From the NCBI GenBank assembly GCA_030648255.1, contig JAUSHZ010000007.1, forward strand, positions 24,404 through 88,403: DNA of 64,000 nt, written 5' to 3'. The position numbers and the translations under genes were made by a program. The DNA is from a bacterium (GTDB lineage Bacteria; Patescibacteriota; Minisyncoccia; Minisyncoccales; CG1-02-41-26). Position 1 is the stretch's first letter. Every line of letters begins with the position of its first letter. Under the pieces are notes generated by a model. That model saw only the letters and a list, made by a program, of their open reading frames with translations, made no database searches and was not told the origin of the DNA. Shown here one piece after another: positions 1,278-32,440 of the stretch.

Positions 1278-1489
1278 GTTAGAAGCTGTGTGAATTTTTA
1301 AATTTAATGATTTAAAAATTCATTACAGATTCTTACACCCCGTTAAGTGCGAGCGATGAGCGAGCTACTTAACTGGGGTTTGTTTGTATTCTTATCCACC
1401 CCAGTGAAGTAAAATTTGAGTACAAATTCACTTCACGGGGTTAAGCGATTGTATTTGTTCAGCCTCGGCTTCGGCTTCGCAAACAATCG
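1278..1489 (-). repeat. Intergenic modular repeat copy 1 (head A, middle I, tail 1)
   Basis: Starts right after the rpsD ATG (cat 1275-1277) and ends at the rpsK stop. The tail hairpin agcgattgt...acaatcgCTA supplies the TAG stop of rpsK. Confidence 0.9.
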
Positions 1490-1981
1490 CTAAACCCTTC
1501 TTGGTTTTCTTGGCCGACAGCCATTATGAGGAATTGGCGTTACGTCTCTTATTGATTCTATCTCCAAGCCTTGAGCGGCAATAGTTTTTAAAGCTGAATC
1601 TCTTCCGCCTCCAACCCCCTTAACAAAAACAGCAACTTCTTTAATTTTAAATTGTTCGCAAGCTAAAGCTACCGCTTGGGCAACTTTAGAGGCGGCAAAA
1701 GAAGTGCCTTTCTTTGTGCCCTTAAACCCAACATTTCCAGCAGACCTCCAAAATAAGACATTTCCTTTTTCATCAGCCAAGCTGACAATAGTATTGTTAT
1801 AGGTTGAAGAAATATAAATTCTGCCCTTTCTAAAAGAAGTTCTGGTAGAAGCAACATTCAAATCTTTTCCTAATTTCTTTTCAACTTTATCTGTTTCTTC
1901 AATAAGCTCTTTTTCTGTTTTTTGTATTACTCTTTTCTTTCCCATGTTAGTATTCGTTAATGAATGAAGTGGCTTTGCCAC
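1490..1981 (-). CDS. rpsK: 30S ribosomal protein S11 (N-terminal extension)
   Basis: 163 aa. The C-terminal half matches S11 (ISSTYNNTIVSLADEKGNVLFWRSAGNVGFKGTKKGT...). Confidence 0.9.
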   Translation of the reverse strand: MAKPLHSLTNTNMGKKRVIQKTEKELIEETDKVEKKLGKDLNVASTRTSFRKGRIYISSTYNNTIVSLADEKGNVLFWRSAGNVGFKGTKKGTSFAASKVAQAVALACEQFKIKEVAVFVKGVGGGRDSALKTIAAQGLEIESIRDVTPIPHNGCRPRKPRRV

Positions 1982-2136
1982 GAATGAATTTACGAAGACT
2001 TACACCCTGTGGAGTAGAAATTTGCTCTGCAAATTTCTGTTTTAAATTTTTAGTAAAAAATTTAAAACTACTCCACGGGGTAAATTCGTCGTAAGCTCTG
2101 GCTTCGCCTGCTGGCTTTCCCTCGCTAACGGCTCAT
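1982..2136 (-). repeat. Intergenic modular repeat copy 2 (head C, middle II, tail 2)
   Basis: Has the catgttagtattcgttaatgaatga... head and the ccctgtggagtag...ctactccacgggg middle. The tail ...cgctaacggctcaTTTA abuts the rpsM stop. Confidence 0.9.
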
Positions 2137-2526
2137 TTACTTTGGCCCTGGGGCTGTTTTTCTTCCAGAACTTACAGTTCTCTTAACATTGCCCCTTACA
2201 GTTCTTGAATTCTTTTTTGTTTTTTGCCCTCTAACAGTCAAGCCCTTTATGTGCCTGGTTCCTCGCCAACACTTAATCTCTTTTAATCTTTTAATATGGG
2301 CCACGTGCTCTCTTCTTAAGTCTCCTTCAATCTTATAACTTGCATCAATAACCTCTTTTATCTTCATTGCTTCTTGCTCGGTTAAATCTTTAGCTTTTTT
2401 CTGTGGCTCTATGTTGCATTGCTTTAAAATTCTTAAAGCCAATGGCCTGCCAATGCCAAAAACATAAGTCAAAGAAATGGCTATTTGTTTATTATCTGGA
2501 ATTGTGATGCTTGCTATTCGTGGCAT
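2137..2526 (-). CDS. rpsM: 30S ribosomal protein S13
   Basis: True start is MPRIASITIPD (cat 2524-2526). The ORF track extends 8 codons into the repeat via a TTG start (MKIHTASNM...). Confidence 0.9.
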   Translation of the reverse strand: MPRIASITIPDNKQIAISLTYVFGIGRPLALRILKQCNIEPQKKAKDLTEQEAMKIKEVIDASYKIEGDLRREHVAHIKRLKEIKCWRGTRHIKGLTVRGQKTKKNSRTVRGNVKRTVSSGRKTAPGPK

Positions 2527-2751
2527 GTTAGAAGCTGTGTGAATTTTCAAATTTAATGATTTGAAAATTCATTACAGATTCTTACACCCCGTTAAGTGCG
2601 AGCGATTAGCAAGCTACTTAACTGGGGTTTGTTTATATTTCTATCCACACCCCAGTGAAGTAGAATTTAATTTCATTAAATTCACTTCACGGGGTAAATT
2701 CCGCCAACCGCTCAAACTTCGGCTCATCGCCTCGTTTTCGCGGGGCGTCAT
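2527..2751 (-). repeat. Intergenic modular repeat copy 3 (head A, middle I variant, tail 3)
   Basis: Lies between the rpsM ATG and the rpmJ stop. The tail is ...ctcaaacttcggctcatcgcctcgttttcgcggggcgtcattta. Confidence 0.9.
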
Positions 2752-2868
2752 TTATGCGCCTTGGCGCTGTTTGTGTTTTGGAGTTTTGCAAATAACATAA
2801 ACCCTCCCCTTTCTTCTGGCGATTTTACAATCCTTACATAATTTTTTTACTGATGGTTTAACCTTCAT
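2752..2868 (-). CDS. rpmJ: 50S ribosomal protein L36 (missed by the 60-aa ORF cutoff)
   Basis: Reverse complement reads ATG AAG GTT AAA CCA TCA... and translates [38 protein letters not shown]. This is a classic L36 with C-x2-C...C-x4-H, 38 aa, in the expected infA-rpmJ-rpsM position. Confidence 0.9.
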
Positions 2869-3085
2869 GTTAGAAGCTGTGTGAATTTTTAAATTTAATG
2901 ATTTGAAAATTCATTACAGATTCTTACACCCCGTTAAGTGCGAGCGATTAGCAAGCTACTTAACTGGGGTTTGTTTGTATTTCTATCCACACCCCAGTGA
3001 AGTAGAATTTGAGTACAAATTCACTTCACGGGGTAAATTCCGCTTGCCAATCGCGCTTCGCCTGCTGGCTCGCACTCTTGGAGCG
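2869..3085 (-). repeat. Intergenic modular repeat copy 4 (head A, middle I, tail 4)
   Basis: Near-identical to copy 3 across the head and middle. The tail ...gcttcgcctgctggctcgcactcttggagcgTCAttta uses tca as the TGA stop of infA. Confidence 0.9.
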
Positions 3086-3304
3086 TCATTTAAGTCTATA
3101 AACTATTCTGCCTCTTTTATCATCAATAGAGGCCATTTCAACCAACACCTTATCGCCCAACAAAATTTTTATGCGATTAATTCTAAGCTTCCCGGCCAAA
3201 TGCGCCAAAACCTCGTTTCCATTTTCCAATTGAATTTTAAATAAAAGACTAGGCAAAGCCTCTACAACTTGGCCTCTTTCTCTTATTGTATTAATTTGTT
3301 TCAT
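3086..3304 (-). CDS. infA: Translation initiation factor IF-1
   Basis: 72 aa with S1-like IF-1 sequence (LENGNEVLAHLAGKLR...GDKVLVE...RGRIVYRLK). Confidence 0.9.
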   Translation of the reverse strand: MKQINTIRERGQVVEALPSLLFKIQLENGNEVLAHLAGKLRINRIKILLGDKVLVEMASIDDKRGRIVYRLK

Positions 3305-4738: not shown

Positions 4739-4866
4739 GTTAGAAATTCTTAATTGAGTGGCGAATTTATGAGCCGTGAAATTTAGAAGTTTTTAGTCCT
4801 CCGTAAATTCAAACTTCGCCTACTGACTCGTTTTCATTAACGGATTACTTATTCTACCACAAAAAT
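4739..4866 (-). repeat. Intergenic modular repeat copy 5 (short: head B + tail only)
   Basis: Sequence catgttagaaattcttaattgagtggcgaatttatgagccgtgaaatttagaag...cgttttcattaacggattacttatt. It lacks the middle module and sits between alaS and the membrane-protein gene. Confidence 0.8.
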
Positions 4867-12221: not shown

Positions 12222-12409
12222 GTTAGTAATTCTTAATTGAACGGCGAATTTATGAGCTGTGAAATTTAGAATTTCTTACACCCCGTGGAGTAGAAATTTG
12301 CTCTGCAAATTTCTATTTTAAATTTTTTACTAAAAATTTAAAATTACTCCACAGGGTAAATTCCGCTTGCCAATCGCGCTTCGATTACTCAGCACTCTTG
12401 GAGCGTCAT
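12222..12409 (-). repeat. Intergenic modular repeat copy 6 (head B, middle II, tail 4 variant)
   Basis: Sequence catgttagtaattcttaattgaacggcgaatttatgagctgtgaaatttagaa...ggagcgtcatTTA. The last tta is the rplO stop. Confidence 0.9.
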
Positions 12410-12841
12410 TTACTTTACTGTTCCTCCTGCTTTTTCTATTTTAACTTGAGCAGCTTTTGAAACCAAGCAATCCTCAATAGTAAGTGATTTAGTAAGTTCG
12501 CCATTTCCTAAAATTTTTACCAATGGAACTTTGCCTATAATTTTTCTAATTAATTTTTTATCAACTAAAACTTCCGGGGTAATTTTGTCTCCTTTTTCAA
12601 AATTCTTTTCTAAAACATTAAGATTTATAGAGGCTGTTTCTTCTCCTCTTAATTCCTGCCTGTATCCTCTTATTTTTGGATATCTTTTAATAATCTCTCT
12701 CATAAAGGGTTGCATTTTTCTCCCAGCCCTTGATTTTTGGCCTTTGCAACCCTTCCCACAGTAAGTTCCCTTCTTGCCTCCTCTGCCAATTCTTTTTCTA
12801 TCTTTTGTCTTATTATTTGGTTGTATTTCGTGAATTTGCAT
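12410..12841 (-). CDS. rplO: 50S ribosomal protein L15
   Basis: Starts MQIHEIQPN...RIGRGGKKG...GQKSRAG. Confidence 0.9.
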   Translation of the reverse strand: MQIHEIQPNNKTKDRKRIGRGGKKGTYCGKGCKGQKSRAGRKMQPFMREIIKRYPKIRGYRQELRGEETASINLNVLEKNFEKGDKITPEVLVDKKLIRKIIGKVPLVKILGNGELTKSLTIEDCLVSKAAQVKIEKAGGTVK

Positions 12842-13040
12842 GTTAGTAATTCTTAATTGAACTGCGAACGATTAGTGAGCTGTGAAATTTAGAAGTACTT
12901 ACACCCTGTGGAGTAGAAATTTGCTCTGCAAATTTCTGTTTTAAATTTTTAGTAAAAAATTTAAAACTACTCCACGGGGTAAATTCCGCCTTCCACTCAA
13001 ACTTCGGCTAATCGCCTCGTTTTCGTGGGGCGTCATTTAA
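12842..13040 (-). repeat. Intergenic modular repeat copy 7 (head B, middle II, tail 3); tail overlaps rpsE 3' end
   Basis: The tail ...cttcggctaatcgcctcgttttcgtggggcgtcattta is homologous to the copy-3 tail. Here it is read in frame as the last 11 codons of S5 ([10 protein letters not shown]). Confidence 0.85.
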
Positions 13041-13526: not shown

Positions 13527-13720
13527 GTTAGTAATTCTTAATTGAACGGCGAACGATTAGTGAGCTGTGAAGTTTAGAAGTACTTACACCCTGTGGAGTA
13601 GAAATTTGCTCTGCAAATTTCTGTTTTAAATTTTTTACTAAAAATTTAAAACTACTCCACGGGGTAAATTCCGCTTGCCAATCGTGCCTCACCTGCTGGC
13701 TCGCACTCTTGGAGCGTCAT
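13527..13720 (-). repeat. Intergenic modular repeat copy 8 (head B, middle II, tail 4)
   Basis: Runs from the rpsE ATG to the rplR stop (gagcgtcatTTAaaattg). Confidence 0.9.
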
Positions 13721-14065
13721 TTAAAATTGTAGCCCACCTTCTCTCGCTCCTTCAGCCAACGCTTTTATTCTACCATGATATTTAAAGCCTCCTCTATCAA
13801 AAACAACTTTTTTAATCTTTTTTTCTATTGCTAATTTAGCAATTTCCTTACCAACATTAAAAGCCTTTTCTAATTTTTTCAGTTTTTTCTCTTTTGAATC
13901 GTTTGCTGAAATAATAGTTTTGCCTTTTGTGTCGTCAATTATTTGAGCATAGATATGCTGGTTTGATTTAAATACGCAAAGCCGAGGCGCGGTTGGTGTG
14001 CCAATGACTTTTGCCCTGATTCGGCTGTGTCTTCTTGTTCTTTTTTGTTGTTTTGTCTGTTGCAT
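13721..14065 (-). CDS. rplR: 50S ribosomal protein L18
   Basis: 114 aa with L18 motifs [17 protein letters not shown]. Confidence 0.9.
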
Positions 14066-14258
14066 GTTAGTAGTCGTTAATGAATGAGTGGCGATTAGCC
14101 ACGAGTGAATTTACGAATTCTTACACCCTGTGGAGTAGAAATTTGCTCTGCAAATTTCTGTTTCAAATTTTTAGCAAAAAATTTGAAACTACACCACGGG
14201 GTAAGTCCTCCGTAAGCTCTGGCTTCGGCTAATCGCCTTGCCATCGCTAACGGATTAC
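14066..14258 (-). repeat. Intergenic modular repeat copy 9 (head C, middle II, tail 2)
   Basis: Sequence catgttagtagtcgttaatgaatgagtggcgattagccacgagtgaatttacgaa...cgctaacggattacTTA. Confidence 0.9.
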
Positions 14259-14819
14259 TTATTTTCCAGCTTTCTTGCCCTCTTTCTTGCGGACAATTTC
14301 ACCAAAATATCTAACGCCCTTGCCTTTGTATGGCTCTGGCTTTCTTAAAGCTCTTATTTTTGCTGCAAACTGGCCAACCTGTTGCTTGTCAAAACCAAAA
14401 ATATTTATAAATTGTTTTTCTATTTTTATAGACAAACCCCCTGGAATCTCCATAAAAATAGGGTGAGAAAAACCCAAGTCCAATCTTATTTTCGATTCTC
14501 CCTCCATAGCAGCCTTGTATCCAACTCCCCTAAGCTCTAATTTCTTTTCAAATCCAACTGAGACGCCATGAACATGGTTCAATAATAAAGCAGTGGTTAA
14601 CCCCCAGAGAGCAGGAATTTCTTTGCTCTCTTTTTCCTGTCTGCCGACAGGCAGGGCTGGCTTTACAACTAAAATATTACCTTGTTGTTCCACAACAATA
14701 CCAACAGGAATTTCCTGTTTTATCTCTCCCTTAGGCCCTTTAAATAAAACATTATCTTTTTCAAGAATAACTGTTACGCCTTGGGGTATTTCTATTGGTT
14801 TTTTTCCTATTCTTGACAT
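14259..14819 (-). CDS. rplF: 50S ribosomal protein L6
   Basis: True start MSRIGKKPIEIP (cat 14817-14819). The ORF track adds MKTHTISN from the repeat head. Confidence 0.9.
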   Translation of the reverse strand: MSRIGKKPIEIPQGVTVILEKDNVLFKGPKGEIKQEIPVGIVVEQQGNILVVKPALPVGRQEKESKEIPALWGLTTALLLNHVHGVSVGFEKKLELRGVGYKAAMEGESKIRLDLGFSHPIFMEIPGGLSIKIEKQFINIFGFDKQQVGQFAAKIRALRKPEPYKGKGVRYFGEIVRKKEGKKAGK

Positions 14820-15021
14820 GTTAGAAATTGTGTGAGTTTTCAAGCTATAATCTTTTTTATGGCTTGAAAACTCATTACAAGTTCTTACACCCTGTGGAGT
14901 AGAAATTTGCTCCGCAAATTTCTGTTTTAAATTTTTTACTAAAAATTTAAAACTACTCCACGGGGTAAGGTATCCGTAAGCTCGGGCTTCGCCTGCTGGC
15001 TCGCCCTCGCTAACGGCTACC
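14820..15021 (-). repeat. Intergenic modular repeat copy 10 (head D, middle II, tail 2)
   Basis: Sequence catgttagaaattgtgtgagttttcaagctataatcttttttatggcttgaaaactcattacaag...cgctaacggctaccTTA. Confidence 0.9.
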
Positions 15022-15411
15022 TTACCACACTTCCACCATTAATTCACCTCCGACTTTATCTTTTCTGGCTTGCTTATCTGTTAATAAACCATTGGTGGTT
15101 GAAACAATAGATAAGCCATAGCCACTTCTTACCTTTGAAATCTCGTCTGCTTTTTTATAAATTCTTTGCCCTGGCTTTGAAATCCTTTTAAACCCAGAGA
15201 CGGCTGGCATCTTTTCATTATATTTTAACTGTATTTTTATAATTTGAAACGGCTTTTTCCCTTTTTTCTTGCAATCCAAAATAAGCCCCTCTGCTTTTAA
15301 AATTTCAGCAATTGAGTATCTTAGTTTTGAAAAAGGAACATCGGTTGTTTTATGGAAAACAACTTGAGCGTTCCTTATTCTATTAAACATGTCTGTTATT
15401 GGATCGGTCAT
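15022..15411 (-). CDS. rpsH: 30S ribosomal protein S8
   Basis: True start MTDPITDMFNRIRNA. The start context here is ttctaaT-ATG rather than ttctaaC-ATG. Confidence 0.9.
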   Translation of the reverse strand: MTDPITDMFNRIRNAQVVFHKTTDVPFSKLRYSIAEILKAEGLILDCKKKGKKPFQIIKIQLKYNEKMPAVSGFKRISKPGQRIYKKADEISKVRSGYGLSIVSTTNGLLTDKQARKDKVGGELMVEVW

Positions 15412-15612
15412 ATTAGAAGTTGTGTGAGTTTTCAAGCTATAATTTTTTTTATGGCTTGAAAACTCATTACAAATTCTTATACCCCGTGGAGTAGAAATTT
15501 GCTCTGCAAATTTCTGTTTTAAATTTTTTACTAAAAATTTAAAACTACTCCACAGGGTAAGTCCTCCGTAAGCTCTGGCTCGGCTGTTGCCTCGCCATAG
15601 CTAACGGATTAC
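15412..15612 (-). repeat. Intergenic modular repeat copy 11 (head D, middle II, tail 2)
   Basis: Very close to copy 10. Ends ...agctaacggattacTTA at the rpsN stop. Confidence 0.9.
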
Positions 15613-15798
15613 TTACCAAGACGACTTCTTAATCCCGGGTATTTCTCCTTTACTTGCCATTTCCCTAAAACAAATTCTGCACAAACCAAAGTCCCTTATA
15701 AATCCCCTGTACCTTCCGCACTTAAAACATCGCCTCACTATTCTTGAAGAAAACTTTGGTTTTCGGTTTGATTGATTAATTAATGATTTTTTTGCCAT
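15613..15798 (-). CDS. rpsN: 30S ribosomal protein S14, Zn-ribbon type
   Basis: 61 aa with C-x2-C...C-x2-C. Confidence 0.9.
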
Positions 15799-16020
15799 GT
15801 TAGTGATTCTTAATTGAACGGCGAGCGATTAGCGAGCTGTGAAATTTAGAATGACTTACACCCCGTTAAGTGCGAGCGATTAGCGAGCTACTTAACTGGG
15901 GTTTCGTTGTATTCTTACCCCACCCCAGTGAAGTAGAATTTGAGTACAAATTCACTTCACGGGGTAAGGCTCTGCTACCGCTCAACCTTCGCCTTCGGCT
16001 CGGCTTCACGGGCAGAAGCC
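15799..16020 (-). repeat. Intergenic modular repeat copy 12 (head B, middle I, tail 3-like); tail overlaps rplE 3' end
   Basis: The tail ccgctcaaccttcgccttcggctcggcttcacgggcagaagcc is homologous to the tail-3 family. It encodes the L5 C-terminal residues ...ASAREAEPKAKVER*. Confidence 0.8.
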
Positions 16021-16634: not shown

Positions 16635-16655
16635 CAGCTTCAGGCTCCATAGCTT

Positions 16656-16961
16656 TTAAATATCAGCTTTGCATTTCTTGCAAATTCTAACTTTATTTTC
16701 TCCTTCTACCTTATAGCCAATTCTTGTGGGTTTATTGCACTTAGGACATAAAGCCTGCGCTTTGGAGGCATTCATTGGAAAAGAAATTTCCACAATTTGC
16801 CCTTTTTCTCCTTGTTTTTTTGGCTTTTTATGCGTCTTTTTTATATTAACTCCTTCAACCAAAATCATTTCCTTAGATGGAAAGCTTTTTAAAACCTTGG
16901 CTTTCTTGCCTTTATCCTTGCCAGCGATTATTAAAACATTGTCTCCTTTTTTGATTCGCAT
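16656..16961 (-). CDS. rplX: 50S ribosomal protein L24
   Basis: True start MRIKKGDNVLIIAGKDKGK (KOW domain). Cat is at 16959-16961. Confidence 0.9.
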   Translation of the reverse strand: MRIKKGDNVLIIAGKDKGKKAKVLKSFPSKEMILVEGVNIKKTHKKPKKQGEKGQIVEISFPMNASKAQALCPKCNKPTRIGYKVEGENKVRICKKCKADI

Positions 16962-17177
16962 GTTAGAAATTGTGTGAGTTTTCAAGCTATAATCTTTTTT
17001 ATGGCTTGAAAACTCATTACAAGTTCTTACACCCTGTTAAGTGCGAGCGATGAGCGAGCTACTTAACTGGGGTTTGTTTATATTATTCTCATACCCCAGT
17101 GAAGTAGAATTTGATTACAAATTCACTTCACGGGGTTAAGCGATTGTAATGCTCGGCTATCGCCTCGCAGACAATCG
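16962..17177 (-). repeat. Intergenic modular repeat copy 13 (head D, middle I, tail 1)
   Basis: The tail hairpin agcgattgt...acaatcgCTA supplies the TAG stop of rplN. This matches copy 1 and its use at rpsK. Confidence 0.9.
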
Positions 17178-17546
17178 CTAAACAACATCTTTAGCCATGG
17201 TTATTATGGCATCAAATCCTTTTTCTTTTAATTCTCGAGGAACCGGCCCTAAAATTCTATTTCCTTTAGGCTGTTTCTGATCATTTAAAATACAGCAAGC
17301 ATTGTCATCAAATCGCAAATAGGAACCGTCTTTTCTTCTAAACGGACTCTTTTGCCTTACAATAACGGCCTTAACAACCTGATGTTCCTTAACATCGCGC
17401 CTTGGCTCTGCTTTTTTAACCGCTGCAACAATTATGTCGCCAATTCTTGCATATTTCTTTCTTGTGCCTCCAGGCACCCCAAAACACTGAACTATCTTAG
17501 CTCCAGTATTATCTGCCACATTTAACATTGTTCTTAACTGAATCAT
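17178..17546 (-). CDS. rplN: 50S ribosomal protein L14
   Basis: 122 aa starting MIQLRTMLNVADNTGAK. Confidence 0.9.
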   Translation of the reverse strand: MIQLRTMLNVADNTGAKIVQCFGVPGGTRKKYARIGDIIVAAVKKAEPRRDVKEHQVVKAVIVRQKSPFRRKDGSYLRFDDNACCILNDQKQPKGNRILGPVPRELKEKGFDAIITMAKDVV

Positions 17547-17550
17547 GGGT

Positions 17551-17778
17551 TTATTTTTTTACTACTTTCCAACACTTATCTTTACTCAAAGGCCTTGACT
17601 CTTCTATTAAAACCTTGTCTCCAATTTCAAAAATATTGCCCGCTGTATCTGCCTTATACTTTTTCGAAGATGTGTATCGCTTTCTGTATTTTGGATGCAC
17701 CTTTATTGTTTCCACTTTCACCACAACAGTGTTTGTCATTTTATTGGAAACTATTTGTCCTTTTAATATCTTTTTCAT
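17551..17778 (-). CDS. rpsQ: 30S ribosomal protein S17
   Basis: 75 aa. GQIVSNKMTNTVVVKVE is typical of S17. Confidence 0.85.
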   Translation of the reverse strand: MKKILKGQIVSNKMTNTVVVKVETIKVHPKYRKRYTSSKKYKADTAGNIFEIGDKVLIEESRPLSKDKCWKVVKK

Positions 17779-17966
17779 TTTTTTATTAAAGTTAATATGC
17801 GAGCTATATTTCTTCTTGATGTTCTTATCTGTCTAATATCCTTTATTTTTCCAGCAGCCAAATCAAATCTAAAAACTCGAAGATTTTCTTGCTTTTCCCT
17901 CAATGATTTTTGCAAATCATCTTTGCTTAATTTTGAAAGCTCTTTTAGCGCTTCTTGTCTTTTCAT
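17775..17966 (-). CDS. rpmC: 50S ribosomal protein L29
   Basis: 63 aa. L29-like sequence at the expected position, overlapping rpsQ by 4 nt. Confidence 0.8.
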   Translation of the reverse strand: MKRQEALKELSKLSKDDLQKSLREKQENLRVFRFDLAAGKIKDIRQIRTSRRNIARILTLIKK

Positions 17967-17967
17967 A

Positions 17968-18375
17968 CTATTTTTTTACAAATTTAACTTTAATTGGCAA
18001 TTTATCTGAGGCCTTGCCAAACGCCTCAACAGCAATCTTTTCATCCACTCCATCAATTTCAAATATCACTCTACCAGGTTTTATCGGAAAAACATAATGG
18101 TCAACAGCCCCCTTGCCTCCACCCATTCCAACTTCTCCGCCTTTTTGCGTAATTGGTTTTTGGGGGAATATCCTAATCCATAGCTTACCCTTTCTTTTCA
18201 TTGCTTTTGTAATAGCTTTTCTAGCTGATTCCATTTGGTTGGCTGTAATCCATTTTGTTCCCATTGATTTCAATCCAAAAGAACCATAGGAAACTTCTGT
18301 TCCTCTTGTATCATTTCCTTTGCTTGTGCCCTTATGCCATTTCCTATGTTTCATTTTTCTTGGTTGTGTCAACAT
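17968..18375 (-). CDS. rplP: 50S ribosomal protein L16
   Basis: True start MLTQPRKMKHRKWHKG (cat 18373-18375). Confidence 0.9.
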   Translation of the reverse strand: MLTQPRKMKHRKWHKGTSKGNDTRGTEVSYGSFGLKSMGTKWITANQMESARKAITKAMKRKGKLWIRIFPQKPITQKGGEVGMGGGKGAVDHYVFPIKPGRVIFEIDGVDEKIAVEAFGKASDKLPIKVKFVKK

Positions 18376-18566
18376 GTTAGAAGCTGTGTGAATTTTCAAA
18401 TTTAATGATTTGAAAATTCATTACAGATTCTTACACCCCGTGGAGTAGAAATTTGCTCTGCAAATTTCTGTTTTAAATTTTTAGTAAAAAATTTAAAACT
18501 ACTCCACAGGGTAAATTCCGCTTGCCAATCACGCTCGCCTGCTGGCTCGCGCTCTTGGAGCGTCAT
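18376..18566 (-). repeat. Intergenic modular repeat copy 14 (head A, middle II, tail 4)
   Basis: Runs from the rplP ATG to the rpsC stop (ggagcgtcatTTAattaaag). It carries a 3-nt deletion relative to copies 4 and 8 in the tail. Confidence 0.9.
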
Positions 18567-19226
18567 TTAATTAAAGCGTTCTCCCTTATACATCCAAACC
18601 TTAACGCCAATAACCCCATAAGTGCAGTGTGCCTCGCATGAGCCATATTCAACTATGGCTCTTATTGTTTGAAGCGGAAGTCGCCCATCTTTTAACCATT
18701 CTCTTCTGGAAATTTCAACTCCATTTAACCTACCTGATACCTCAACCTTCACGCCTTTTATTTCTTTTTGCTCAGCTGTTTTGCTTATTGCCATTTTCAA
18801 AACTCTTCTAAACGGCACTTGCTTTTCGATTTGGCCAGCCATCCATTGAGCTGTTAAGCTGGCTGAAAGCCATGGGTTTCTTATTTCAATAATTTCTATT
18901 TTAATGCTGTTTTTATCTGTTTTTATCTTCCCCTTTACTTTTGATATTGCTTTTTCAATTCCCATTTTCAAATCCTCAACTCCTTTGCCCCCCCTGCCGA
19001 TAATCAAAGCGGGTCTGGAAGTTTTAATAATAATTTTTAAGGCAGCGGATGTTCTCTCTATCTCTACTTCCTGAATAATACCCGCGGGTAGCTTCTTAGT
19101 GATAAACTGCCTAATTATAAAATCCTCCTCTAAGTAAACAGGAAAATTGTTCTTATAAAAGCCTCTTGAAAGCCAGTCTTTCATTTCTCTTATCTTAAAA
19201 GATTTTGGGTTGACTTTATGGCTCAT
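18567..19226 (-). CDS. rpsC: 30S ribosomal protein S3
   Basis: 219 aa with KH and S3-C domains. Confidence 0.9.
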   Translation of the reverse strand: MSHKVNPKSFKIREMKDWLSRGFYKNNFPVYLEEDFIIRQFITKKLPAGIIQEVEIERTSAALKIIIKTSRPALIIGRGGKGVEDLKMGIEKAISKVKGKIKTDKNSIKIEIIEIRNPWLSASLTAQWMAGQIEKQVPFRRVLKMAISKTAEQKEIKGVKVEVSGRLNGVEISRREWLKDGRLPLQTIRAIVEYGSCEAHCTYGVIGVKVWMYKGERFN

Positions 19227-19576
19227 ACTTTTGATTTATCTTGTTTAAAAATATCTAAATTTAAAGTAATATTAGAAGTTTTCTTTTCTATTCTACAAGC
19301 CCTGCCCCTAGCTCTGGCCCTCCATCTTTTAAGGGTTCTGCCCTCATCAACTTTAATTAAGGAAATAAACAAATCTTTTTCTTCTAATTTAAAATTGTTT
19401 TTAGCGTTGGCCACTGCTGAATCCAAAAGCTTTTTTAAAGGCAAGGCTCCTTTTTTAATGCAAAATCCTAAAGATGCTTGGGCTTTCCCAGCAGATTTTC
19501 CTCTAACCATATCAGCCACCAAGCGAACTTTTCTGGGTGATATTCTTAAATTGTTTAATTTTGCTATAACTTGCAT
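19223..19576 (-). CDS. rplV: 50S ribosomal protein L22
   Basis: True start MQVIAKLNNLRISPRK (cat 19574-19576). Confidence 0.9.
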   Translation of the reverse strand: MQVIAKLNNLRISPRKVRLVADMVRGKSAGKAQASLGFCIKKGALPLKKLLDSAVANAKNNFKLEEKDLFISLIKVDEGRTLKRWRARARGRACRIEKKTSNITLNLDIFKQDKSKV

Positions 19577-19776
19577 GTTAGAAATTGTGTGAGTTTTCAA
19601 GCTATATTTCCTTATGGCTTGAAAACTCATTACAAGTTCTTACACCCCGTGGAGTAGAAATTTGCTCCGCAAATTTCTGTTTTAAATTTTTAGTAAAAAA
19701 TTTAAAACTACTCCACAGGGTAAATTCCGCTTGCCAATCGCGCTTCGCCTGCTGGCTCGCGCTCTTGGAGCGTCAT
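19577..19776 (-). repeat. Intergenic modular repeat copy 15 (head D, middle II, tail 4)
   Basis: Ends ...gctcttggagcgtcatTTA at the rpsS stop. Confidence 0.9.
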
Positions 19777-20103
19777 TTATTTCTTTACTGGTACTGGTGC
19801 TTTAGGTTGGGTTTGAGTTTGCACTTTTGATTCTTGCTCTCTTTGCATTTTTCCGCCATGCCTGCCAAACTTCGTGGTTGGGGAAAATTCTCCTAATTTA
19901 TGGCCAACCATATCTTCTGAAACATAAACGGGAATATGCTCTTTTCCATTATGGACTCCAAAAGTAAAGCCAACCATTTCTGGTGTAACAGAACACTCGC
20001 GAGACCATGTCTTAATAACTTTTTTCTCGCCAGCTTTCTGGTTGATGACTTTTTTTATTAATCTTTCGTCCACAAAAGGACCCTTTTTTAGTGATCGTGG
20101 CAT
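19777..20103 (-). CDS. rpsS: 30S ribosomal protein S19
   Basis: Starts [12 protein letters not shown]..., a classic S19. Confidence 0.9.
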
Positions 20104-20107
20104 AAAA

Positions 20108-20902
20108 TTATTTGTGCTTCTTCTGAATTCGTCTTTTTAAAATTAACCTACTTGTCCAGCTTTTCCTTCTGGTTTTAACTCCCAAGGCTGGTTTTCCCCA
20201 AGGAGTTCTTGGGTGGCGGCCAATTGGCTGTTTGTTCTTTCCACCTCCATGAGGGTGGTCGCAAGCATTCATAGCTGAACCTCTCACAGTTGGACGGTGG
20301 CCCATTTTTCTGGCAGTGCCTGCTTTCCCAATTTGCTTAAATCTGTGTTCCGGATTTGAAACCTGACCAATTGAGGCAAAACATTCGTTTAAAACTTTCC
20401 TTACTTCAGTGGAAGGCATTTTTAACTGGCTATACTTTCCCTCGTGGCCCATAATAACAATGCCACTTCCAGCGGATCTTGCCATTTTACCCCCAGCCAT
20501 TGGAAATAGTTCAATATTATGGACAATTGAACCAACGGGAATATTTTTTAAACGCATTCTGTTGCCGGCCTTAATCGGAGTTAAGTCCGAACAAACTAGT
20601 TCATCGCCAACGGTTAATCCATCTGGAGCAATAATATATTTCTGTTCGCCATCATTATACTTTAATAAAGCAATATGGCAAGTTCTATTTGGGTCATATT
20701 CAAGAGATTGGACAACCGAAGATTCATTAATTCTTGATTGGCCAAAATCAACCATTCGATACATCCTTTTTACCCCGCCTCCTTTATGGTGTACAGTAAT
20801 ACGGCCGGTATTATTTTTACCGCCTGTTTTTTTCAACACCCTTAATAAACTCTTCTGGGGCTTGTTCTTTGATAAAATTGTTTTTTTTCTGTGTAAAGCC
20901 AT
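20108..20902 (-). CDS. rplB: 50S ribosomal protein L2
   Basis: 264 aa with [16 protein letters not shown]. Confidence 0.9.
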
Positions 20903-20904
20903 AA

Positions 20905-21348
20905 TTATCGCGGAATTATTTCAATCTCTTGCCCCTTCTTAATAGTAACAATTGCTTTTTTATATCCTTTTTTCCAGCCGGTTGTTCTGCCCAATCTTTT
21001 TTTCTTCCTGTCAACATTAATTATTCTTACTTTTTCAACGACAACACCATAAACCTCTTGGACTGCTTTTTTTACTTCTGGCTTGGTGGCTGTTTTAAAA
21101 GCTTGAAAAATATATTGGTTTTTTTCCATTAAAAAAGTGGCTTTTTCAGTAATTTGAGGCCTGCTTAAAACGCTTGGAGCTAATTTTATATCCACTTTTT
21201 TTGCTTTGCCCGCCGTAGTTTTAATAGGGGCGGACTTTTCCTCTACAACTTTCCTTTCCTTCTTGTCCGCCGAAGCTTTAGCGGAGGTGGACTTTTTCTT
21301 ATCTTTAAAGCTTTCCTCTTTTTTTGTTTTTTTAAAAAATAATGACAT
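20905..21348 (-). CDS. rplW: 50S ribosomal protein L23 (long K/E-rich N-terminal extension)
   Basis: The C-terminal 95 aa are L23-like (FKTATKPEVKKAVQEVYGV). Confidence 0.8.
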   Translation of the reverse strand: MSLFFKKTKKEESFKDKKKSTSAKASADKKERKVVEEKSAPIKTTAGKAKKVDIKLAPSVLSRPQITEKATFLMEKNQYIFQAFKTATKPEVKKAVQEVYGVVVEKVRIINVDRKKKRLGRTTGWKKGYKKAIVTIKKGQEIEIIPR

Positions 21349-21349
21349 A

Positions 21350-21988
21350 CTACTTCTTTTCTTTTATAAATAAATCCTGCATAACCTTTATACTTTCCTT
21401 GGGCATAATTAAATATTTGTTGTTCAAAACATCTAAAGCATTCAGGTCTTTTACTTGCATAATTTTTGTTTTGTCTATATTTCTAGAAGCCAAAATAAAG
21501 TCATTGTCCATTTCAGGTAAAGCAATTAAAGTTGTCTTGCCAAGAGTTGGCATTTTTTCTAAAATACCAGCTGCTAATTTTGTTTTAGCAGTTTTTATTT
21601 TTAAATCCTCTATTAAAATTACAAAATTATTCTTAGCTTTTTCAGTCAAAGCCATAAATAGAGCTGCTCTTTTTATTTTCTTTGGCACAATTTTTTTATA
21701 AACTTTTTCGTTTGTGGGGCCAAAAGTAACACCTCCGCCCTTCCAAATAGGAGACCTGGTGGAGCCAGCTCTGGCTCTGCCTGTTCCTTTTTGACGCCAT
21801 GGTTTTTTGCCTCCCCCAGAAACATCGCCTCTGTCTTTTGTGTGGGCGTTGCCTTGCCTTCTGTTTGCCATCTGGGAAACAGCCACTTGATGCAACAAAT
21901 CCTTAGATAATTTCACATCAAAAATCTCCTTCGGCAATTCCGCCTGGCCTGTTTTCTCACCCATTTGATTGTATATATCGATTTTCAT
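21350..21988 (-). CDS. rplD: 50S ribosomal protein L4
   Basis: 212 aa with L4 family motifs (KPWRQKGTGRAR). Confidence 0.9.
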   Translation of the reverse strand: MKIDIYNQMGEKTGQAELPKEIFDVKLSKDLLHQVAVSQMANRRQGNAHTKDRGDVSGGGKKPWRQKGTGRARAGSTRSPIWKGGGVTFGPTNEKVYKKIVPKKIKRAALFMALTEKAKNNFVILIEDLKIKTAKTKLAAGILEKMPTLGKTTLIALPEMDNDFILASRNIDKTKIMQVKDLNALDVLNNKYLIMPKESIKVMQDLFIKEKK

Positions 21989-22014
21989 GTTGGCTATTTT
22001 CTATCCACTGCTTA

Positions 22015-22641
22015 CTATTTACTCTTTTTCTTATTTACTATTGAACTTGTAATCTCTACAAGCGTTCCTCGCCTGCCAGGGATGGCGCCTTTTACTGCAA
22101 TCAAATTATTTTCCAAATCAATTTTAACAATTTTTAAATTTCTCACCGAAATTCGCACAAATCCCATATGGCCTGGCATTCTCTTGCCCGGGAAAACTCT
22201 ACCCGGGTCAGTAGCACCAACCGAACCAATTGTTCTTACTTCATGCTTTGTGCCATGGGTTGTGTGATGCCCCCTAAAATTATATCTCTTAACACCTCCT
22301 TGAAACCCTTTGCCCTTGCTAATACCTGAAATTTTAACTTTATCTCCTTCTTGAAAAACAGAGGCATTAATCTCCTGCCCTAATTCATAATTCTTAATTC
22401 CTGATTCCTGAGGCCTGAACTCTTTTAAATATCTATACTCTTTGCCTTTCTCGGTTTTCTTAATTTTTCTAGCTTTTTTTTCAAAACCAATCTGAACCGA
22501 TTCATAGCCATCTTTGCTTTCCTTGGTCTTATTTTGTAAAACAACACAAGGCCCAGCTGTAATCAAAGTTACTGGGACTGCATCTCCCTTTTCATTAAAT
22601 ATTTGAGTCATCTCTAATTTTTTTCCAAGAATAAATGACAT
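22015..22641 (-). CDS. rplC: 50S ribosomal protein L3
   Basis: 208 aa with GKGFQGGVKRYNF. Confidence 0.9.
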   Translation of the reverse strand: MSFILGKKLEMTQIFNEKGDAVPVTLITAGPCVVLQNKTKESKDGYESVQIGFEKKARKIKKTEKGKEYRYLKEFRPQESGIKNYELGQEINASVFQEGDKVKISGISKGKGFQGGVKRYNFRGHHTTHGTKHEVRTIGSVGATDPGRVFPGKRMPGHMGFVRISVRNLKIVKIDLENNLIAVKGAIPGRRGTLVEITSSIVNKKKSK

Positions 22642-22941
22642 GTTAGAAGCTGTGTGAATTTTTAAATTTAATGATTTAAAAATTCATTACAGATTCTTAC
22701 ACCCTGTGAAGTAAAATTTGAGTACAAATTTTAATTTTAAATTTTTTACTAAAAATTTAAAATTACTTCACGGGGTTAATAATCCGTAAGCTCAAGCTTC
22801 GCCTGCTGGCTCGCTCTCGCTAACGAATTATTAAAAACACGAGGCATTAACTCCCCGCATTTTTGTTAAAAACTCAAGGGTTAAATTCTTCCCACTTTCA
22901 AGGGTTAAACTAATTAAGTTTTACCTTGAACTCTATATTAA
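22642..22941 (-). repeat. Intergenic modular repeat copy 16 (head A, chimeric middle, tail 2 + ~110-bp unique extension)
   Basis: The middle is a hybrid: ccctgtgaagtaaaatttgagtacaaatt (the M-I loop) fused to ...ttttttactaaaaatttaaaattacttcacgggg (the M-II 3' half). The tail is followed by caagggttaaa(t/c)t direct repeats before the rpsJ stop. Confidence 0.8.
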
Positions 22942-23280
22942 TTAAATCGTTTTAATTTCAATTTCCACGCCCGCTGGCAAGGTTAAATCACGAAGCGACT
23001 CAATAAATCTTTGGTTTGGATTTGTTACTTCTATCAATCGCTTGTGCACTCTCATTTCAAATTGCTCTCTAGCATCTTTGTGAACAAATGTTGACCTGTT
23101 TACTGTGTATTTTTTTATTTCTGTTGGCAAAGGCACAGGCCCAACCATTTCCACGCCCGACCTGCCCGAAATTTCTGTAATCTGATGGCACGAAGCGTCA
23201 ACCACCTTGCTATCATATGATTTTAGCTTAATTCTTAGCTGAACCGCCTGCTCCACTGGTTTTTCTTTTACTGTTGCCAT
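22942..23280 (-). CDS. rpsJ: 30S ribosomal protein S10
   Basis: 112 aa. The S10 fold motif is RIKLKSYD...VHKRLIEV. Confidence 0.9.
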   Translation of the reverse strand: MATVKEKPVEQAVQLRIKLKSYDSKVVDASCHQITEISGRSGVEMVGPVPLPTEIKKYTVNRSTFVHKDAREQFEMRVHKRLIEVTNPNQRFIESLRDLTLPAGVEIEIKTI

Positions 23281-27550: not shown

Positions 27551-27814
27551 GTTAGTAATCGTTAATGAATGAGTGGCGATTAGCCACGAGTGAATTTACG
27601 AGGACTTACACCCTGTGAAGTAAGATTTGAGGTCTCTTCCAAAAAGTGTATTCTCTTAAACTTTTAACTATTTTTCTCTCGCATCAATTGTTAATAATCG
27701 TACCCTCAAATCTTAATTTTAAATTTTTTACTAAAAATTTAAAATTACTTCACGGGGTAAATTCCGCCAACCGCTCAAACTTCGGCTCATCGCCTCGTTT
27801 TTGCTGGGCGTCAT
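27551..27814 (-). repeat. Intergenic modular repeat copy 17 (head C, middle with ~75-bp nested insertion, tail 3)
   Basis: The apical loop of the middle hairpin is replaced by the stem-loop gatttgaggtctc...gtaccctcaaatc. The tail ...ctcgtttttgctgggcgtcatTTA supplies the TAA stop of rpsL. Confidence 0.85.
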
Positions 27815-28231
27815 TTAACTTTTAACTCTTTTTGCTCCGTATTTAGATCTTCCATTTTTTCTGCCAGCCACCCCTGTGGTATCTAAATGTCCTCTAACAA
27901 TATGATATCTCACGCCGGGTAAATCTTTAACCCTTCCCCCTCTCACCAAAACCATTGAGTGCTCTTGTAGGTTGTGGCCTTCCCCGCCAATATAAGCAGA
28001 AACTTCTTTGCCATTTGATAGCTTAACCCTGGCTACTTTTCGTAAAGCCGAGTTTGGTTTTTTTGGAGTAACTGTGAAAACCTTAGTGCAAATTCCTCTC
28101 TTAAATGGAGACGCGTAGTCCTGTGGCCTGTTTTTTAAAACATTAAAACCATAAGTCAAAGCTCTCATCTTGATTGTTTTTTTCACTGGCTTTCTTGGCT
28201 TTTTAATTAATTGATGAATTGTTGGACACAT
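27815..28231 (-). CDS. rpsL: 30S ribosomal protein S12
   Basis: 138 aa with [11 protein letters not shown], a classic S12. Confidence 0.95.
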
Positions 28232-28366: not shown

Positions 28367-29317
28367 TTACTTACACTGCTGGGGTTTCACAGAGGTGCAG
28401 GTCAATGTTCCGTCAAGTGCTGTGCACCAAGTAATTCCTGCTTTGTCTGTATCTCCAATTCCCAAACAGCCAGTCAACGCTCCACTTCCTATCATAACTG
28501 TTGTCGAAGCAGAAGACGACACCTCCAAATTATACGCCGGCGTTGTCGTCCCAATCCCGATATTACCCTTCAATATTGTTTTCGTAATACTAGTATTTCC
28601 TAAAGTTACAGAATTGCTGCCATTGCCTATAGCACTCGCTCCTATTACTATTTCATTGGTATTCCCGTCTGCTCCAGCCATTGCGTTATAACCCTCATAA
28701 ACAGAGTTACTGGAAGTTGTATTGGCGGTAACACCATCGGCAATATAAACACCAGCCTTCGTGCCATTGGCGGTGTTTTGATAACCAGTATTATAGTAGA
28801 GAGCCTGCATACCGTTAGCGGTATTTTGATAACCAGTAGTGTTTGAGAAAAGAGCCTGCATACCGTTAGCGGTATTGTAATCGCCAGCAGTATTAGAATA
28901 AAGGGCATACACGCCATTAGCTGTATTTGTATATCCTGTAGTGTTAGAGTAGAGAGATCTATAACCAACAGCAGTATTATAACCCGCTTCATTTGTACTG
29001 GCTGTTGAACTTGCCATCCCCGCTTGATAGCCAACAAAAGTATTGTATAAGGATACATCATAATGACCTGCCTGGTAGCCAATATTAGTTTTAAAGCCAA
29101 TATTATTAAAATCAATTAGATCAGTAACCGCTATACCAAGAGAGGTTAGATATGTAGTAGTAGTTGTAGCTAATGTGCTAGTACTAAAAACATCTAGAGC
29201 TCCCCCAATAGAAACATTATTACCAATTGTGGTAACAGCTTGGGCGACTATAACTACGCAAAAAACCGTTGTTATGACGCTCACTACTACAGTAAAAATT
29301 TGCTTTTTATTATTCAT
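28367..29317 (-). CDS. Secreted repeat protein with T-rich N-region and ~19-aa tandem repeats (GYQNTANGMQALYSNT...)
   Basis: N-terminal signal/TM segment. Five or more degenerate tandem repeats are visible at both the DNA (about 57-60-nt period) and protein level. The C-terminus is Cys-containing. Confidence 0.6.
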   Translation of the reverse strand: MNNKKQIFTVVVSVITTVFCVVIVAQAVTTIGNNVSIGGALDVFSTSTLATTTTTYLTSLGIAVTDLIDFNNIGFKTNIGYQAGHYDVSLYNTFVGYQAGMASSTASTNEAGYNTAVGYRSLYSNTTGYTNTANGVYALYSNTAGDYNTANGMQALFSNTTGYQNTANGMQALYYNTGYQNTANGTKAGVYIADGVTANTTSSNSVYEGYNAMAGADGNTNEIVIGASAIGNGSNSVTLGNTSITKTILKGNIGIGTTTPAYNLEVSSSASTTVMIGSGALTGCLGIGDTDKAGITWCTALDGTLTCTSVKPQQCK

Positions 29318-31832: not shown

Positions 31833-32060
31833 TTGACAATGGTTATATTTTTTTGCTAATATAACAGTGTGCTTGTGGGGCGTCAGCCCTATTCGGCTAA
31901 TTCCTAAGCTGAAGGCAGGCACATTTACATCTTCTTGCGGGGCTGAAATGCAGAAAATCGGCTCTACTGCGGGGTGCGAGTAGTCCCTTTACGGGGTATC
32001 CAAAGCGCTACGAGGGAGGGTTGCCGTCCTCCCAGCTCCACAAGAGGATGTATTTTTTTA
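31833..32060 (+). ncRNA. Candidate ~190-nt structured sRNA with promoter
   Basis: TTGACA (31833-31838), 18 nt, TAATAT (31857-31862). The 5' cuugugg pairs with the 3' ccacaag (a terminal closing helix) followed by auguauuuuuuu. The ORF called on the opposite strand (31512..31922) overlaps rpmB and is judged spurious. Confidence 0.4.
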
Positions 32061-32247
32061 TATAATCGTTATCTCGCAATCTAAATGCTGTGGCAATTTG
32101 AATTTCTTCTAATTCTATTCCATCGCATAATATTTTTACAGCTTCAATGGAGCATAAATAATCTAAACTTCCAATTCTTTTCACCAAGCAATACCCACCC
32201 CGTTTGCTTGTTTTATTTTGGTAAATTTTATCTGGATACTTAACTAT

Positions 32248-32436: not shown

Positions 32437-32440
32437 GAGT

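Follow-up and report, generated by a model that had tools for sequence, protein, structure and literature searches.

Mosaic three-hairpin repeats fill gene junctions of the ribosomal-protein superoperon in a Parcubacteria genome

The str/S10/spc/alpha superoperon of a candidate-phyla-radiation bacterium holds, in the gaps between its genes, 17 copies of a three-hairpin repeat of about 190 nt, all in a single orientation. The family is a true mosaic, the modules of which assort independently; its copies are insertions relative to the closest relative, and between related genomes they have been gained, lost and replaced site by site.

The window, i.e., the whole stretch of 64,000 nucleotides that was analysed, is A/T-rich (36-40% G+C), and the str, S10, spc and alpha ribosomal-protein operons occupy the minus strand of the first 28 kb. 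A search with the product of rplC assigns the host to the Parcubacteria/Paceibacteria, within the candidate phyla radiation; L001 is the genome locus nearest to it (rplC 87.9%, EF-Tu 98.0% identical), ahead of L002-L004 and L007. Of the roughly 50 gene starts of the window, only one has a Shine-Dalgarno sequence, and a TATAAT motif lies about 5-11 nt 5′ of the ATG at many genes; a promoter scan gave promoter-like sites without enrichment (33 found against 27.5 expected).

The original prediction had counted 17 copies in the window, a number that direct reading confirmed. In the sense (mRNA) order the repeat consists of a 5′ hairpin (R), a central branched module (M) and a 3′ hairpin (L). The copies are given below with their module types in the order L, M, R.

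Copy 1, 1278..1492, minus strand: upstream of rpsD; L-a, M-I, r3
Copy 2, 1946..2139, minus strand: upstream of rpsK; L-c, M-II, r1
Copy 3, 2527..2755, minus strand: upstream of rpsM; L-a, M-I, r2′
Copy 4, 2869..3093, minus strand: upstream of a short ORF, probably rpmJ; L-a, M-I, r2
Copy 5, 4739..4852, minus strand: between alaS and a GlxA-domain gene; L-b, no M, r1-like R
Copy 6, 12222..12412, minus strand: upstream of secY; L-b, M-II, r2
Copy 7, 12842..13040, minus strand: upstream of rplO; L-b, M-II, r2′
Copy 8, 13527..13723, minus strand: upstream of rpsE; L-b, M-II, r2
Copy 9, 14066..14261, minus strand: upstream of rplR; L-c, M-II, r1
Copy 10, 14820..15024, minus strand: upstream of rplF; L-d, M-II, r1
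Copy 11, 15412..15615, minus strand: upstream of rpsH; L-d, M-II, r1; ends in CUAAU, not CUAAC
Copy 12, 15799..16012, minus strand: upstream of rpsN; L-b, M-I, r4
Copy 13, 16962..17180, minus strand: upstream of rplX; L-d, M-I, r3
Copy 14, 18376..18569, minus strand: upstream of rplP; L-a, M-II, r2
Copy 15, 19577..19779, minus strand: upstream of rplV; L-d, M-II, r2
Copy 16, 22642..22834, minus strand: upstream of rplC; L-a, M-III, r1
Copy 17, 27551..27817, minus strand: upstream of rpsG; L-c, M-III with long arm, r2′

The catalogue covers one 64-kb window of the host genome. Within it, copies stand at 17 of about 37 gene starts between 1 and 28 kb and at none of about 42 between 28 and 64 kb (Fisher p = 2e-7, with the gene starts taken from our own tally). 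The repeats measure 114-267 nt, and each fills the gap to the preceding gene. On the plus strand they open with CAT followed by GTTAG at 16 sites (CATGTTAG) and with CAT followed by ATTAG at copy 11 (CATATTAG), the CAT being the start codon of the downstream minus-strand gene. Conservation is found in the basal stem of R (UAA...UUA), in the long stem of M (CCCCGUG...CACRGGG) and in the basal stem of L (GUAAG...CUAAC, with CUAAC directly 5′ of the AUG), and the upper part of each module is interchangeable. The upstream stop codon lies inside the R basal stem in 13 of the 17 copies. In two copies the reading frame of the upstream gene enters R: the rpsE frame (S5) runs into R of copy 7 by 11 codons, and the rplE frame (L5) crosses R of copy 12, gaining 16 codons. 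The ends of the element, TAAATGACGC... or TAAGTAATCC... on one side and ...TTACTAAC on the other, are not inverted repeats. Some modules, 60-76 nt long, recur with 100% identity in different copies, and the repeats lie far beyond chance.

An ATG adjoins all 17 window copies. Fifteen further copies were found in other contigs: 10 adjoin an ATG directly, three stand 2 nt 5′ of one, and of the remaining two one runs off the contig end and one has no ATG nearby. Elements in other contigs precede non-ribosomal genes, such as those for membrane proteins and a response regulator, and in contigs L084 and L091 the element lies directly 3′ of a TATAAT box, i.e., in the position of a 5′ leader. A 17-mer core searched against viral contigs gave 11 matches, all of them due to chance and lacking the structure of the element.

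The independent assortment of the modules is evident from the distance matrices of L, M and R among the 16 full copies (Mantel tests: R-L, r = -0.002, p 0.46; M-L, r = -0.016, p 0.50; R-M, r = 0.17, p 0.09). The matrices are uncorrelated (r ~0), and the mosaic reading of the original prediction came through this check of congruence. The following pairs illustrate the pattern, with the identity given for each module.

Copies 1 and 16: L 100%, M 57%, R 63%
Copies 10 and 13: L 100%, M 57%, R 58%
Copies 2 and 7: L 76%, M 100%, R 64%
Copies 3 and 17: L 70%, M 56%, R 95%

Exchange is seen within a module as well. In the 76-nt M-II module of nine copies, three features were scored, namely the mismatch in the outer stem, the direction in which the loop of arm A lies and the base in the arm-B loop; all three feature pairs fail the four-gamete test, each showing all four combinations. 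Arm A occurs in two forms, ...TTTTTAGTAAAAAA... and its reverse complement ...TTTTTTACTAAAAA..., with AGTA or TACT as the loop; from contig to contig another arm flips in the same way, and the two arms may change places. The relation of similarity to genomic distance is weak and concerns M alone (r = 0.30, p = 0.014), with no trend in R and L.

The superoperon of L001 is colinear with that of the window and has spacers of 0-60 nt at each site that an element fills in the window. A blastn search with six representative window copies gave no hit in 80 related operon loci; in these same loci, an nhmmer profile of the M-L junction likewise detected no copies beyond two remnants in L001. The remnants are two sites, occupied by an element in the window, at which AAGAATTACTAA immediately precedes the ATG; this 12-mer, with which L type b ends on its 3′ side, is missing from the remaining 79 loci. 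At the filled sites the native spacer is gone, with neither target-site duplications nor terminal inverted repeats. A metagenome scan for the core motif gave 11 contigs, one of which, L089, carries the same operon (rplC 83.5%, EF-Tu 93.7%). This contig has elements at rplW-rplB and tuf-rpsJ, where the window sites are empty (TAATTATG and the overlap TAATG, respectively), and also upstream of rpsN, rplO and rplC. The window is more closely related to L001 than to L089, but it is with L089 that it shares the copy at the rplC site, so that L001 most likely lost its elements.

Replacement can be followed at the orthologous rplE-rpsN site, where R is common to the window (copy 12) and L089 and also encodes a C-terminal extension of L5, and where the types of M and L differ. 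M of copy 9 is 96% identical to that of the L089 copy at tuf-rpsJ. Paralogous modules reach 97-100% identity as against 80-92% for orthologous ones, and this higher paralogous identity suggests homogenisation since the split, an indirect hint that exchange may be recent.

The junction of rpsJ and rplC, where copy 16 lies, is composed as follows.

22642..22701, minus strand: L of copy 16, type a; ends ...CUUCUAAC directly 5′ of the rplC AUG (22641-22639)
22702..22775, minus strand: M of copy 16, type M-III; stem CCCCGUGAAGUAA/UUACUUCACAGGG with two arms
22776..22834, minus strand: R of copy 16, type r1; apical motif GAGCCAGCAGGCGAAG
22835..22941, minus strand: ancestral rpsJ-rplC leader, a hairpin followed by a G+C-rich hairpin and a U-run; outside the repeat

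According to the original prediction, the middle of copy 16 joins parts of M-I and M-II. The match in sequence is real: one arm, aaaatttgagtacaaatttt, has a core, aatttgagtacaaatt, that is identical in the M-I copies 1, 4 and 12, and the second arm, aattttaaattttttactaaaaatttaaaatt, is present in M-II copies. A recent chimera is nevertheless contradicted by better matches outside the window (95.9% in L091, 93.2% in L084 and 90.5% in the L089 orthologue, against at most 85.5% within it) and by the L089 copy upstream of rplC, which is composed like copy 16, with L-a, the same central type and R of type r1, and has the arm AAAATTTGTACTCAAATTTT in identical form. Because the same make-up is found in the L089 orthologue, and M-III in L084 and L091, the apparent chimera predates the species split, and the middle is an established third type, M-III, rather than as a recent recombinant of M-I and M-II. 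Module by module, copy 16 and its L089 orthologue are 91.7% (L), 90.5% (M) and 79.7% (R) identical, and the rplD-rpsJ alignment (HSP) of the window with L089, element included, is about 78% identical; by direct reading, four compensated base pairs differ in the lower stem of R. L of copy 16 is also 100% identical to that of copy 1 and 97-98% identical to those of copies 3, 4 and 14.

The stretch at 22835-22941 had been taken for a unique extension of copy 16, of about 110 bp, which it is not: it is 76.6% identical over 111 nt to the rpsJ-rplC spacer of L001 (E 1e-12) and homologous to those of L002 (71%) and L089, and the spacers of L001 and L002 carry no repeat. All four sequences have the hairpin, the G+C-rich hairpin with its U-run and a TATAAT-like box just after rpsJ, and the consensus fold contains four compensated pairs. 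The segment is the native leader of rplC. The caagggttaaa(t/c)t direct repeats noticed earlier are indeed present (22875-22887 and 22899-22911), within the leader, where each caagggttaaa forms the 3′ arm of a helix of its own.

Copy 17 is built from the following parts.

27551-27610, minus strand: L-c
27611-27757, minus strand: M-III with long arm
27631..27704, minus strand: insert of 74 nt, closed by gatttgagg/cctcaaatc, which replaces the apical part of the arm
27758-27817, minus strand: R of type r2′

Its R is 95% identical to that of copy 3, and its L is 93% identical to that of copy 9. The apical loop is replaced in the same arm, as had been claimed, by 74 nt; the replacement is not a 75-bp stem-loop, the long arm having a 12-bp stem, common to the short arm, around about 70 nt that are weakly structured. 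When the insert was sought elsewhere, no second copy was found within the window, and the L089 copy upstream of rpsN proved to have a homologous long arm of equal length that aligns with that of copy 17 over its whole length. Copy 17 thus represents an old, inherited module type and not a recent chimera. Copy 5 (4739-4852) lacks the middle, as had been described; it has L and R only and is a degenerate two-hairpin copy. The proposal that copies exchange modules therefore holds for the family as a mosaic, but copies 16, 17 and 5 do not serve as evidence that the exchange is ongoing.

The folds of the repeats were compared as RNA and as DNA. Folding as RNA gave z-scores of -9.2 (copy 16 and its flanks) and -6.1 (copy 8), and folding of the copy 16 repeat alone as DNA gave -11.4. 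Nearly all stem pairs are Watson-Crick, and the two strands fold with equal stability: 0-5 G-U pairs are predicted among the 29-84 pairs per copy, whichever strand is folded, the sense strand is the more stable one in 8 of 17 copies, and all stem covariation in 24-26 copies is Watson-Crick. Other Parcubacteria operons (L012, L015, L016 and L036) have hairpin families of their own, unrelated to this one, in the gaps between stop and start codons; neither these nor the present family showed strand asymmetry (G-U versus C-A pairs, sense versus antisense stability). The rarity of G-U pairs, the equal stability of the strands and the flipping of loops argue for DNA-level palindrome dynamics, and the pattern points to maintenance of palindromes in DNA rather than to an evolved RNA fold. 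Small hairpin-associated inversions are known in chloroplast DNA.

The stems also contain conserved irregularities. Position 3 of the L stem is an A.A mismatch in 26 of 26 copies, and position 8 is a pyrimidine-pyrimidine mismatch in 22 of 26. At position 4 of the M stem, 24 copies show C.A (16), U.G (5) or C-G (3); the commonest state, C.A, is mismatched in the RNA sense and becomes a G.T wobble when the opposite strand is read. These conserved mismatches look like a surface for recognition by a protein, which could act on DNA or on RNA.

Taken together, the repeats are, somewhat more probably than not, a new, lineage-specific family of composite DNA palindromes, akin to BIMEs and BOX elements, reshuffled by template switching or short-tract conversion and tolerated by a host that has no need of Shine-Dalgarno sites. 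The family would spread and be reshuffled at the DNA level, probably by short-tract gene conversion or copy-choice (template switching) involving copies that lie on the same strand, with microhomology provided by the conserved stem bases and by the stop (TAA) and start (ATG) codons. Such microhomology at TAA and ATG would account for the exact replacement of the spacer, for the lack of target-site duplication and for the single orientation. The elements would be co-transcribed with the operon, and would be tolerated because the genome makes no use of Shine-Dalgarno sites and the fold leaves both codons, stop and start, at the base of hairpins that lie next to each other.

Three observations sit less easily with DNA-level reshuffling. 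The similarity-distance relation is weak and restricted to M. The invariant mismatches resemble the site of a protein, a candidate transposase, recombinase or ribonuclease, and count against passive copy-choice, which needs no recognition site. Finally, the copies in 5′ leaders, directly 3′ of a TATAAT box, hint at a role at the RNA level.

Such a role would make the element a functional RNA, "punctuation" or a leader, recognised after co-transcription either by the ribosome or by an endoribonuclease of an RNase III-like or hairpin-specific kind; this reading is unlikely. In one version, cleavage at the foot of L would produce cistrons that begin at or near the AUG; in the other, the compact fold would carry a ribosome that terminates at the base of R, where the stop codon lies, across to the start codon at the base of L. 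Both are in line with the fusion of the AUG to the 3′ end (17/17 copies in the window and 10/15 further ones, three more being 2 nt off) and with the stop codon within the R basal stem (13/17), and the irregularities of the L and M stems are invariant although modules shuffle. The lack of Shine-Dalgarno sites and the TATAAT about 5-11 nt 5′ of the ATG are as for leaderless or near-leaderless mRNAs, the element forms a 5′ leader after the TATAAT box in L084 and L091, and unrelated hairpin families stand at the stop-to-start gaps of other Parcubacteria operons. At the orthologous site, moreover, L is 91.7% identical against about 78% for the flanking coding DNA. The element is, however, dispensable, since L001 has the same genes and none of the copies, and the occupied sites differ between the window and L089. 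Furthermore, a sense-strand signature is lacking, as G-U pairs are equally rare on the sense and antisense strands and the usual C.A of M stem position 4 is mismatched in the RNA; the other hairpin families also lack strand asymmetry, and no Rfam family matches. Known intercistronic processing hairpins, such as the RNase III sites of phage T7, offer an analogy for this reading. A plastid intercistronic expression element is likewise a processing element between cistrons (PMC2230500). The plastid element resembles the present family, as do the T7 sites, in being structured and placed between the cistrons of a polycistronic RNA; both differ from it in being single-copy and site-specific, with cleavage demonstrated, whereas the family described here is dispensable and shuffled.

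A non-autonomous transposable element, of the REPIN/BIME-RAYT kind or of the IS200/IS605 type, is unlikely. It would be mobilised in trans by an enzyme acting on folded single-stranded hairpins, and this would agree with the strictly single-strand orientation, the absence of terminal inverted repeats and target-site duplication, the conserved mismatches in both imperfect end hairpins, the presence or absence of copies among relatives and the equal folding of both strands, which is expected for DNA hairpins. A Pfam scan of 40 window proteins, about half of the roughly 80 genes in the 64 kb, nevertheless revealed no transposase, recombinase or reverse transcriptase. The hairpins are terminal, unlike the subterminal ones of IS608; insertion at a fixed tetranucleotide would retain the native spacer, whereas here the spacer is replaced and the element always touches the ATG; and the copies, rather than being scattered, cluster in a single superoperon.

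More speculative is the view that stop-to-start hairpin cassettes are a general, hitherto undescribed expression feature of Parcubacteria that lack Shine-Dalgarno sites, i.e., an RNA module anchored at the AUG. Recognition may then depend on the invariant A.A and pyrimidine-pyrimidine mismatches and lead to cleavage, which would set free leaderless cistrons, or to the passing on of terminating ribosomes over the fold to the following AUG, and the families of L012, L015, L016 and L036 would be convergent solutions.

It is very improbable that the chimeric copies are artefacts of short-read assembly across repeats: repeats do confuse assemblers, as independent short-read contigs break inside them, but at four gene-element junctions contigs L092 and L093 of run SRR13727527 agree with the window at 100% identity, which rules out misassembly there, the gene order is canonical and colinear with L001, where a wrong path through a shared module would rearrange genes, and the orthologous L089 copy has the architecture of copy 16. 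An exact-sequence look-up of five window proteins gave these two short contigs from the one run, both identical to the window, and L093 also confirms the junction of copy 13, on the R side, with the upstream rplN.

The nearest known kind of element is the mosaic palindromic repeat, as represented by BIMEs, which are assembled from REP units, the pneumococcal BOX and organelle hairpin elements. The BIMEs of enterobacteria are extragenic, transcribed palindromic units, in which linkers and a small number of unit types are combined into mosaics. Like REP sequences and BIMEs, the present repeats are short imperfect palindromes, mosaic in composition and located in extragenic transcribed DNA; like BIMEs, they are found within operons, vary in copy number and content among strains and have near-perfect stems. 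They differ in having no sequence similarity to BIMEs and in their larger (45-150 nt), branched units. BIMEs leave the ribosome-binding site intact, whereas here the spacer is replaced and the start codon fused, in a host without Shine-Dalgarno sites and with no RAYT gene among the 40 scanned window proteins. Families of REP tags have been described (PMC3733652). In REP elements the palindrome has a conserved GTAG or CGTC tag at its foot; here, related motifs occur as GAGTAG/CTACTC inside the M-II stem and as GAGCGTC in r2, and do not lie at the foot of the hairpin in all types.

The BOX elements of Streptococcus pneumoniae consist of boxA, a variable number of boxB and boxC, and are dispersed in intergenic regions genome-wide. 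They share with the present family the three-part modular build, a middle that is variable or missing (copy 5), stable transcript structures and an obscure mobilising mechanism, but there is no sequence similarity, and BOX elements are not anchored at start codons. Among organelles, the double-hairpin elements of Allomyces are a counterpart. Repetitive hairpin-forming elements of organelle genomes are short selfish repeats that invade compact genomes (PMC2800124); they are comparable in being lineage-specific, in nested insertions and in repeated invasion and loss, and they differ in being tied neither to stop-start junctions nor to one orientation. As regards hairpin elements of the kind described here, literature searches gave no account from candidate-phyla-radiation bacteria. 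What is new about the present family is its branched three-hairpin design, its fusion with the start codon at the cost of the whole spacer, its having invaded ribosomal operons, and the lineage of its host.

Several other classes were considered and set aside. The MIRUs of Mycobacterium tuberculosis, reportedly described by Supply and colleagues in 1997, are said to be intercistronic repeats in sense orientation with an exact stop-to-start fit; they are 40-100-bp tandem units with short ORFs overlapping the flanking stop and start codons. A coupling ORF of this type was rejected here: the units are hairpins, the frame opened by an ATG in r2-type R stops within 22 codons inside M, and no frame is open across the element. 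A MITE was excluded, the ends not being inverted repeats and the spacer being replaced without duplication. Nor do the copies have the form of an IS200/IS605-derived element, in which hairpins are subterminal and insertion occurs 3′ of a fixed tetra- or pentanucleotide that remains on the left with the native flank on the right, as their hairpins are terminal and the native spacer on the ATG side is kept in none of the 17. Integron attC sites, single imperfect palindromes next to mobile gene cassettes whose two ends carry complementary R″ (RYYYAAC) and R′ (GTTRRRY) cores, were discarded in view of the three separate hairpins, the non-complementary ends and the flanks, which are canonically ordered ribosomal genes. 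An intrinsic terminator was rejected, the terminator-like matches within the elements being all on the antisense (plus) strand, where they reflect A/T-rich arms; they were not read as antisense termination either, because the order of the arms is reversed in some other contigs, and the sole candidate on the sense strand is the native leader at 22835-22941, outside the repeat. Known Rfam RNAs (ribozymes, HEARO, IS605-associated RNAs and r-protein leaders) gave no match: a scan of the whole window at gathering thresholds returned only a tRNA and DUF3800-V, and a permissive scan of 12000-23000 only sub-threshold microRNA-hairpin matches. tRNA-like punctuation and known self-cleaving ribozymes were likewise considered and rejected.

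Ribosomal-protein operons are among the most compact and conserved bacterial loci, and here they hold 17 structured repeats of about 190 nt, none of which is present in a relative 88% identical in rplC. For annotation the family carries a warning, as its elements extend reading frames (S5, L5) and break short-read assemblies. With sites that are filled, empty or reduced to remnants, with orthologous copies and with loops in both orientations, it offers a clean natural dataset on the spread and recombination of palindromic repeats. A candidate-phyla-radiation genome without Shine-Dalgarno sites can tolerate, or may exploit, large hairpin cassettes before its start codons. If a role at the RNA level were true, it would represent a new mode of operon punctuation, and if such cassettes were a general expression feature of Parcubacteria, the mobility of the elements would let lineages re-punctuate even their ribosomal operons.

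L001, the colinear operon of the closest relative, carries a G+C-rich hairpin repeat of 45 nt, CCCCACCCCTC.GCTT.CGGGC.GAGGAGTGGGG, in four copies; the two of the four that were inspected occupy the rplR-rpsE and rpsJ-rplC junctions, where the window holds the 190-nt element of the 17-copy family.

L001 5325-5367, 45-nt hairpin repeat
L001 9499-9546, 45-nt hairpin repeat
L001 12693-12741, 45-nt hairpin repeat
L001 17010-17052, 45-nt hairpin repeat

Long intercistronic hairpins of 80-200 nt were also observed in the ribosomal operons of other Parcubacteria, namely loci L012, L015, L016 and L036, and also L007, L020, L026 and L029. These operons have hairpin families of their own, bearing no relation to the 17-copy family; short oligonucleotides repeated in tandem (AAATTCCAAATCAC...) make up one arm and their complement the opposite arm, and the hairpin often extends from the stop codon to a few nucleotides from the start codon. 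No strand asymmetry in folding was found in the long-hairpin families of L012, L015, L016 and L036.

L036 14897-15032, intercistronic long hairpin
L015 12222-12360, intercistronic long hairpin

Two reading frames of the window run into R, the 5′ hairpin module of the 17-copy family, and the L5 extension, KASAREAEPKAKVER, is kept as KASTREAETKVKAER in L089, a metagenome contig with the same operon.

13008-13040, minus strand, rpsE (S5) frame continuing into the R hairpin for 11 codons
15975-16012, minus strand, rplE (L5) frame continuing into the R hairpin for 16 codons

Separate from the 17-copy family, and unrelated to it, is a hairpin located at or over the rplE start, for which Rfam returned only sub-threshold matches to microRNA hairpins. 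In a conserved leader, common to four genomes and without a match in Rfam, a TATAAT-like box right after rpsJ precedes two hairpins, the second of which is G+C-rich and has a U-run behind it; this leader may represent an internal promoter and attenuator for the rplC-led genes.

16575-16650, minus strand, perfect 22-bp G+C-rich hairpin, GAAGCTGTTGAAACCGAGCTTC...GAAGCTCGGTTTCAACAGCTTC, at the rplX-rplE junction
22835-22941, minus strand, conserved leader between rpsJ and rplC

Between adk and secY, a 94-aa ORF with no Pfam match is flanked by two long non-coding stretches, neither of which has a match in Rfam. Positions 10113-10208 are 94.8% identical to L001, above the identity of the adjoining coding DNA, and the region is a candidate for a small RNA or for a regulatory function.

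10001-10239, non-coding stretch on one side of the 94-aa ORF
10525-10937, non-coding stretch on the other side

Further features are found between 28 and 61 kb. The ORF directly downstream of rpsL (28367-29317, 316 aa), which contains tandem repeats, has no Pfam match. The low-G+C stretch, preceded by a tRNA-Pro at 31677 and coding for an N6/N4 DNA methylase, a DUF6996/DUF6997 protein and LexA, may be an island. The DUF3800-V motif lies beside a DUF3800 gene, a known association.

28739-28939, four tandem repeats of 51 nt (17 codons) inside the 316-aa ORF
32000-36000, low-G+C stretch (31-32%)
48983-49080, plus strand, DUF3800-V RNA motif (Rfam RF02964, 41.9 bits)
49116-49784, minus strand, DUF3800 protein gene adjoining the motif
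59906-60319, plus strand, Gp49-like gene (DUF891, HigB-type toxin family) after MacB-type ABC transporter genes

Across the whole window, a Shine-Dalgarno sequence is present at one of about 50 gene starts, that at 10524. Many window genes have TATAAT about 5-11 nt before the ATG, an arrangement suggestive of leaderless or near-leaderless mRNAs.
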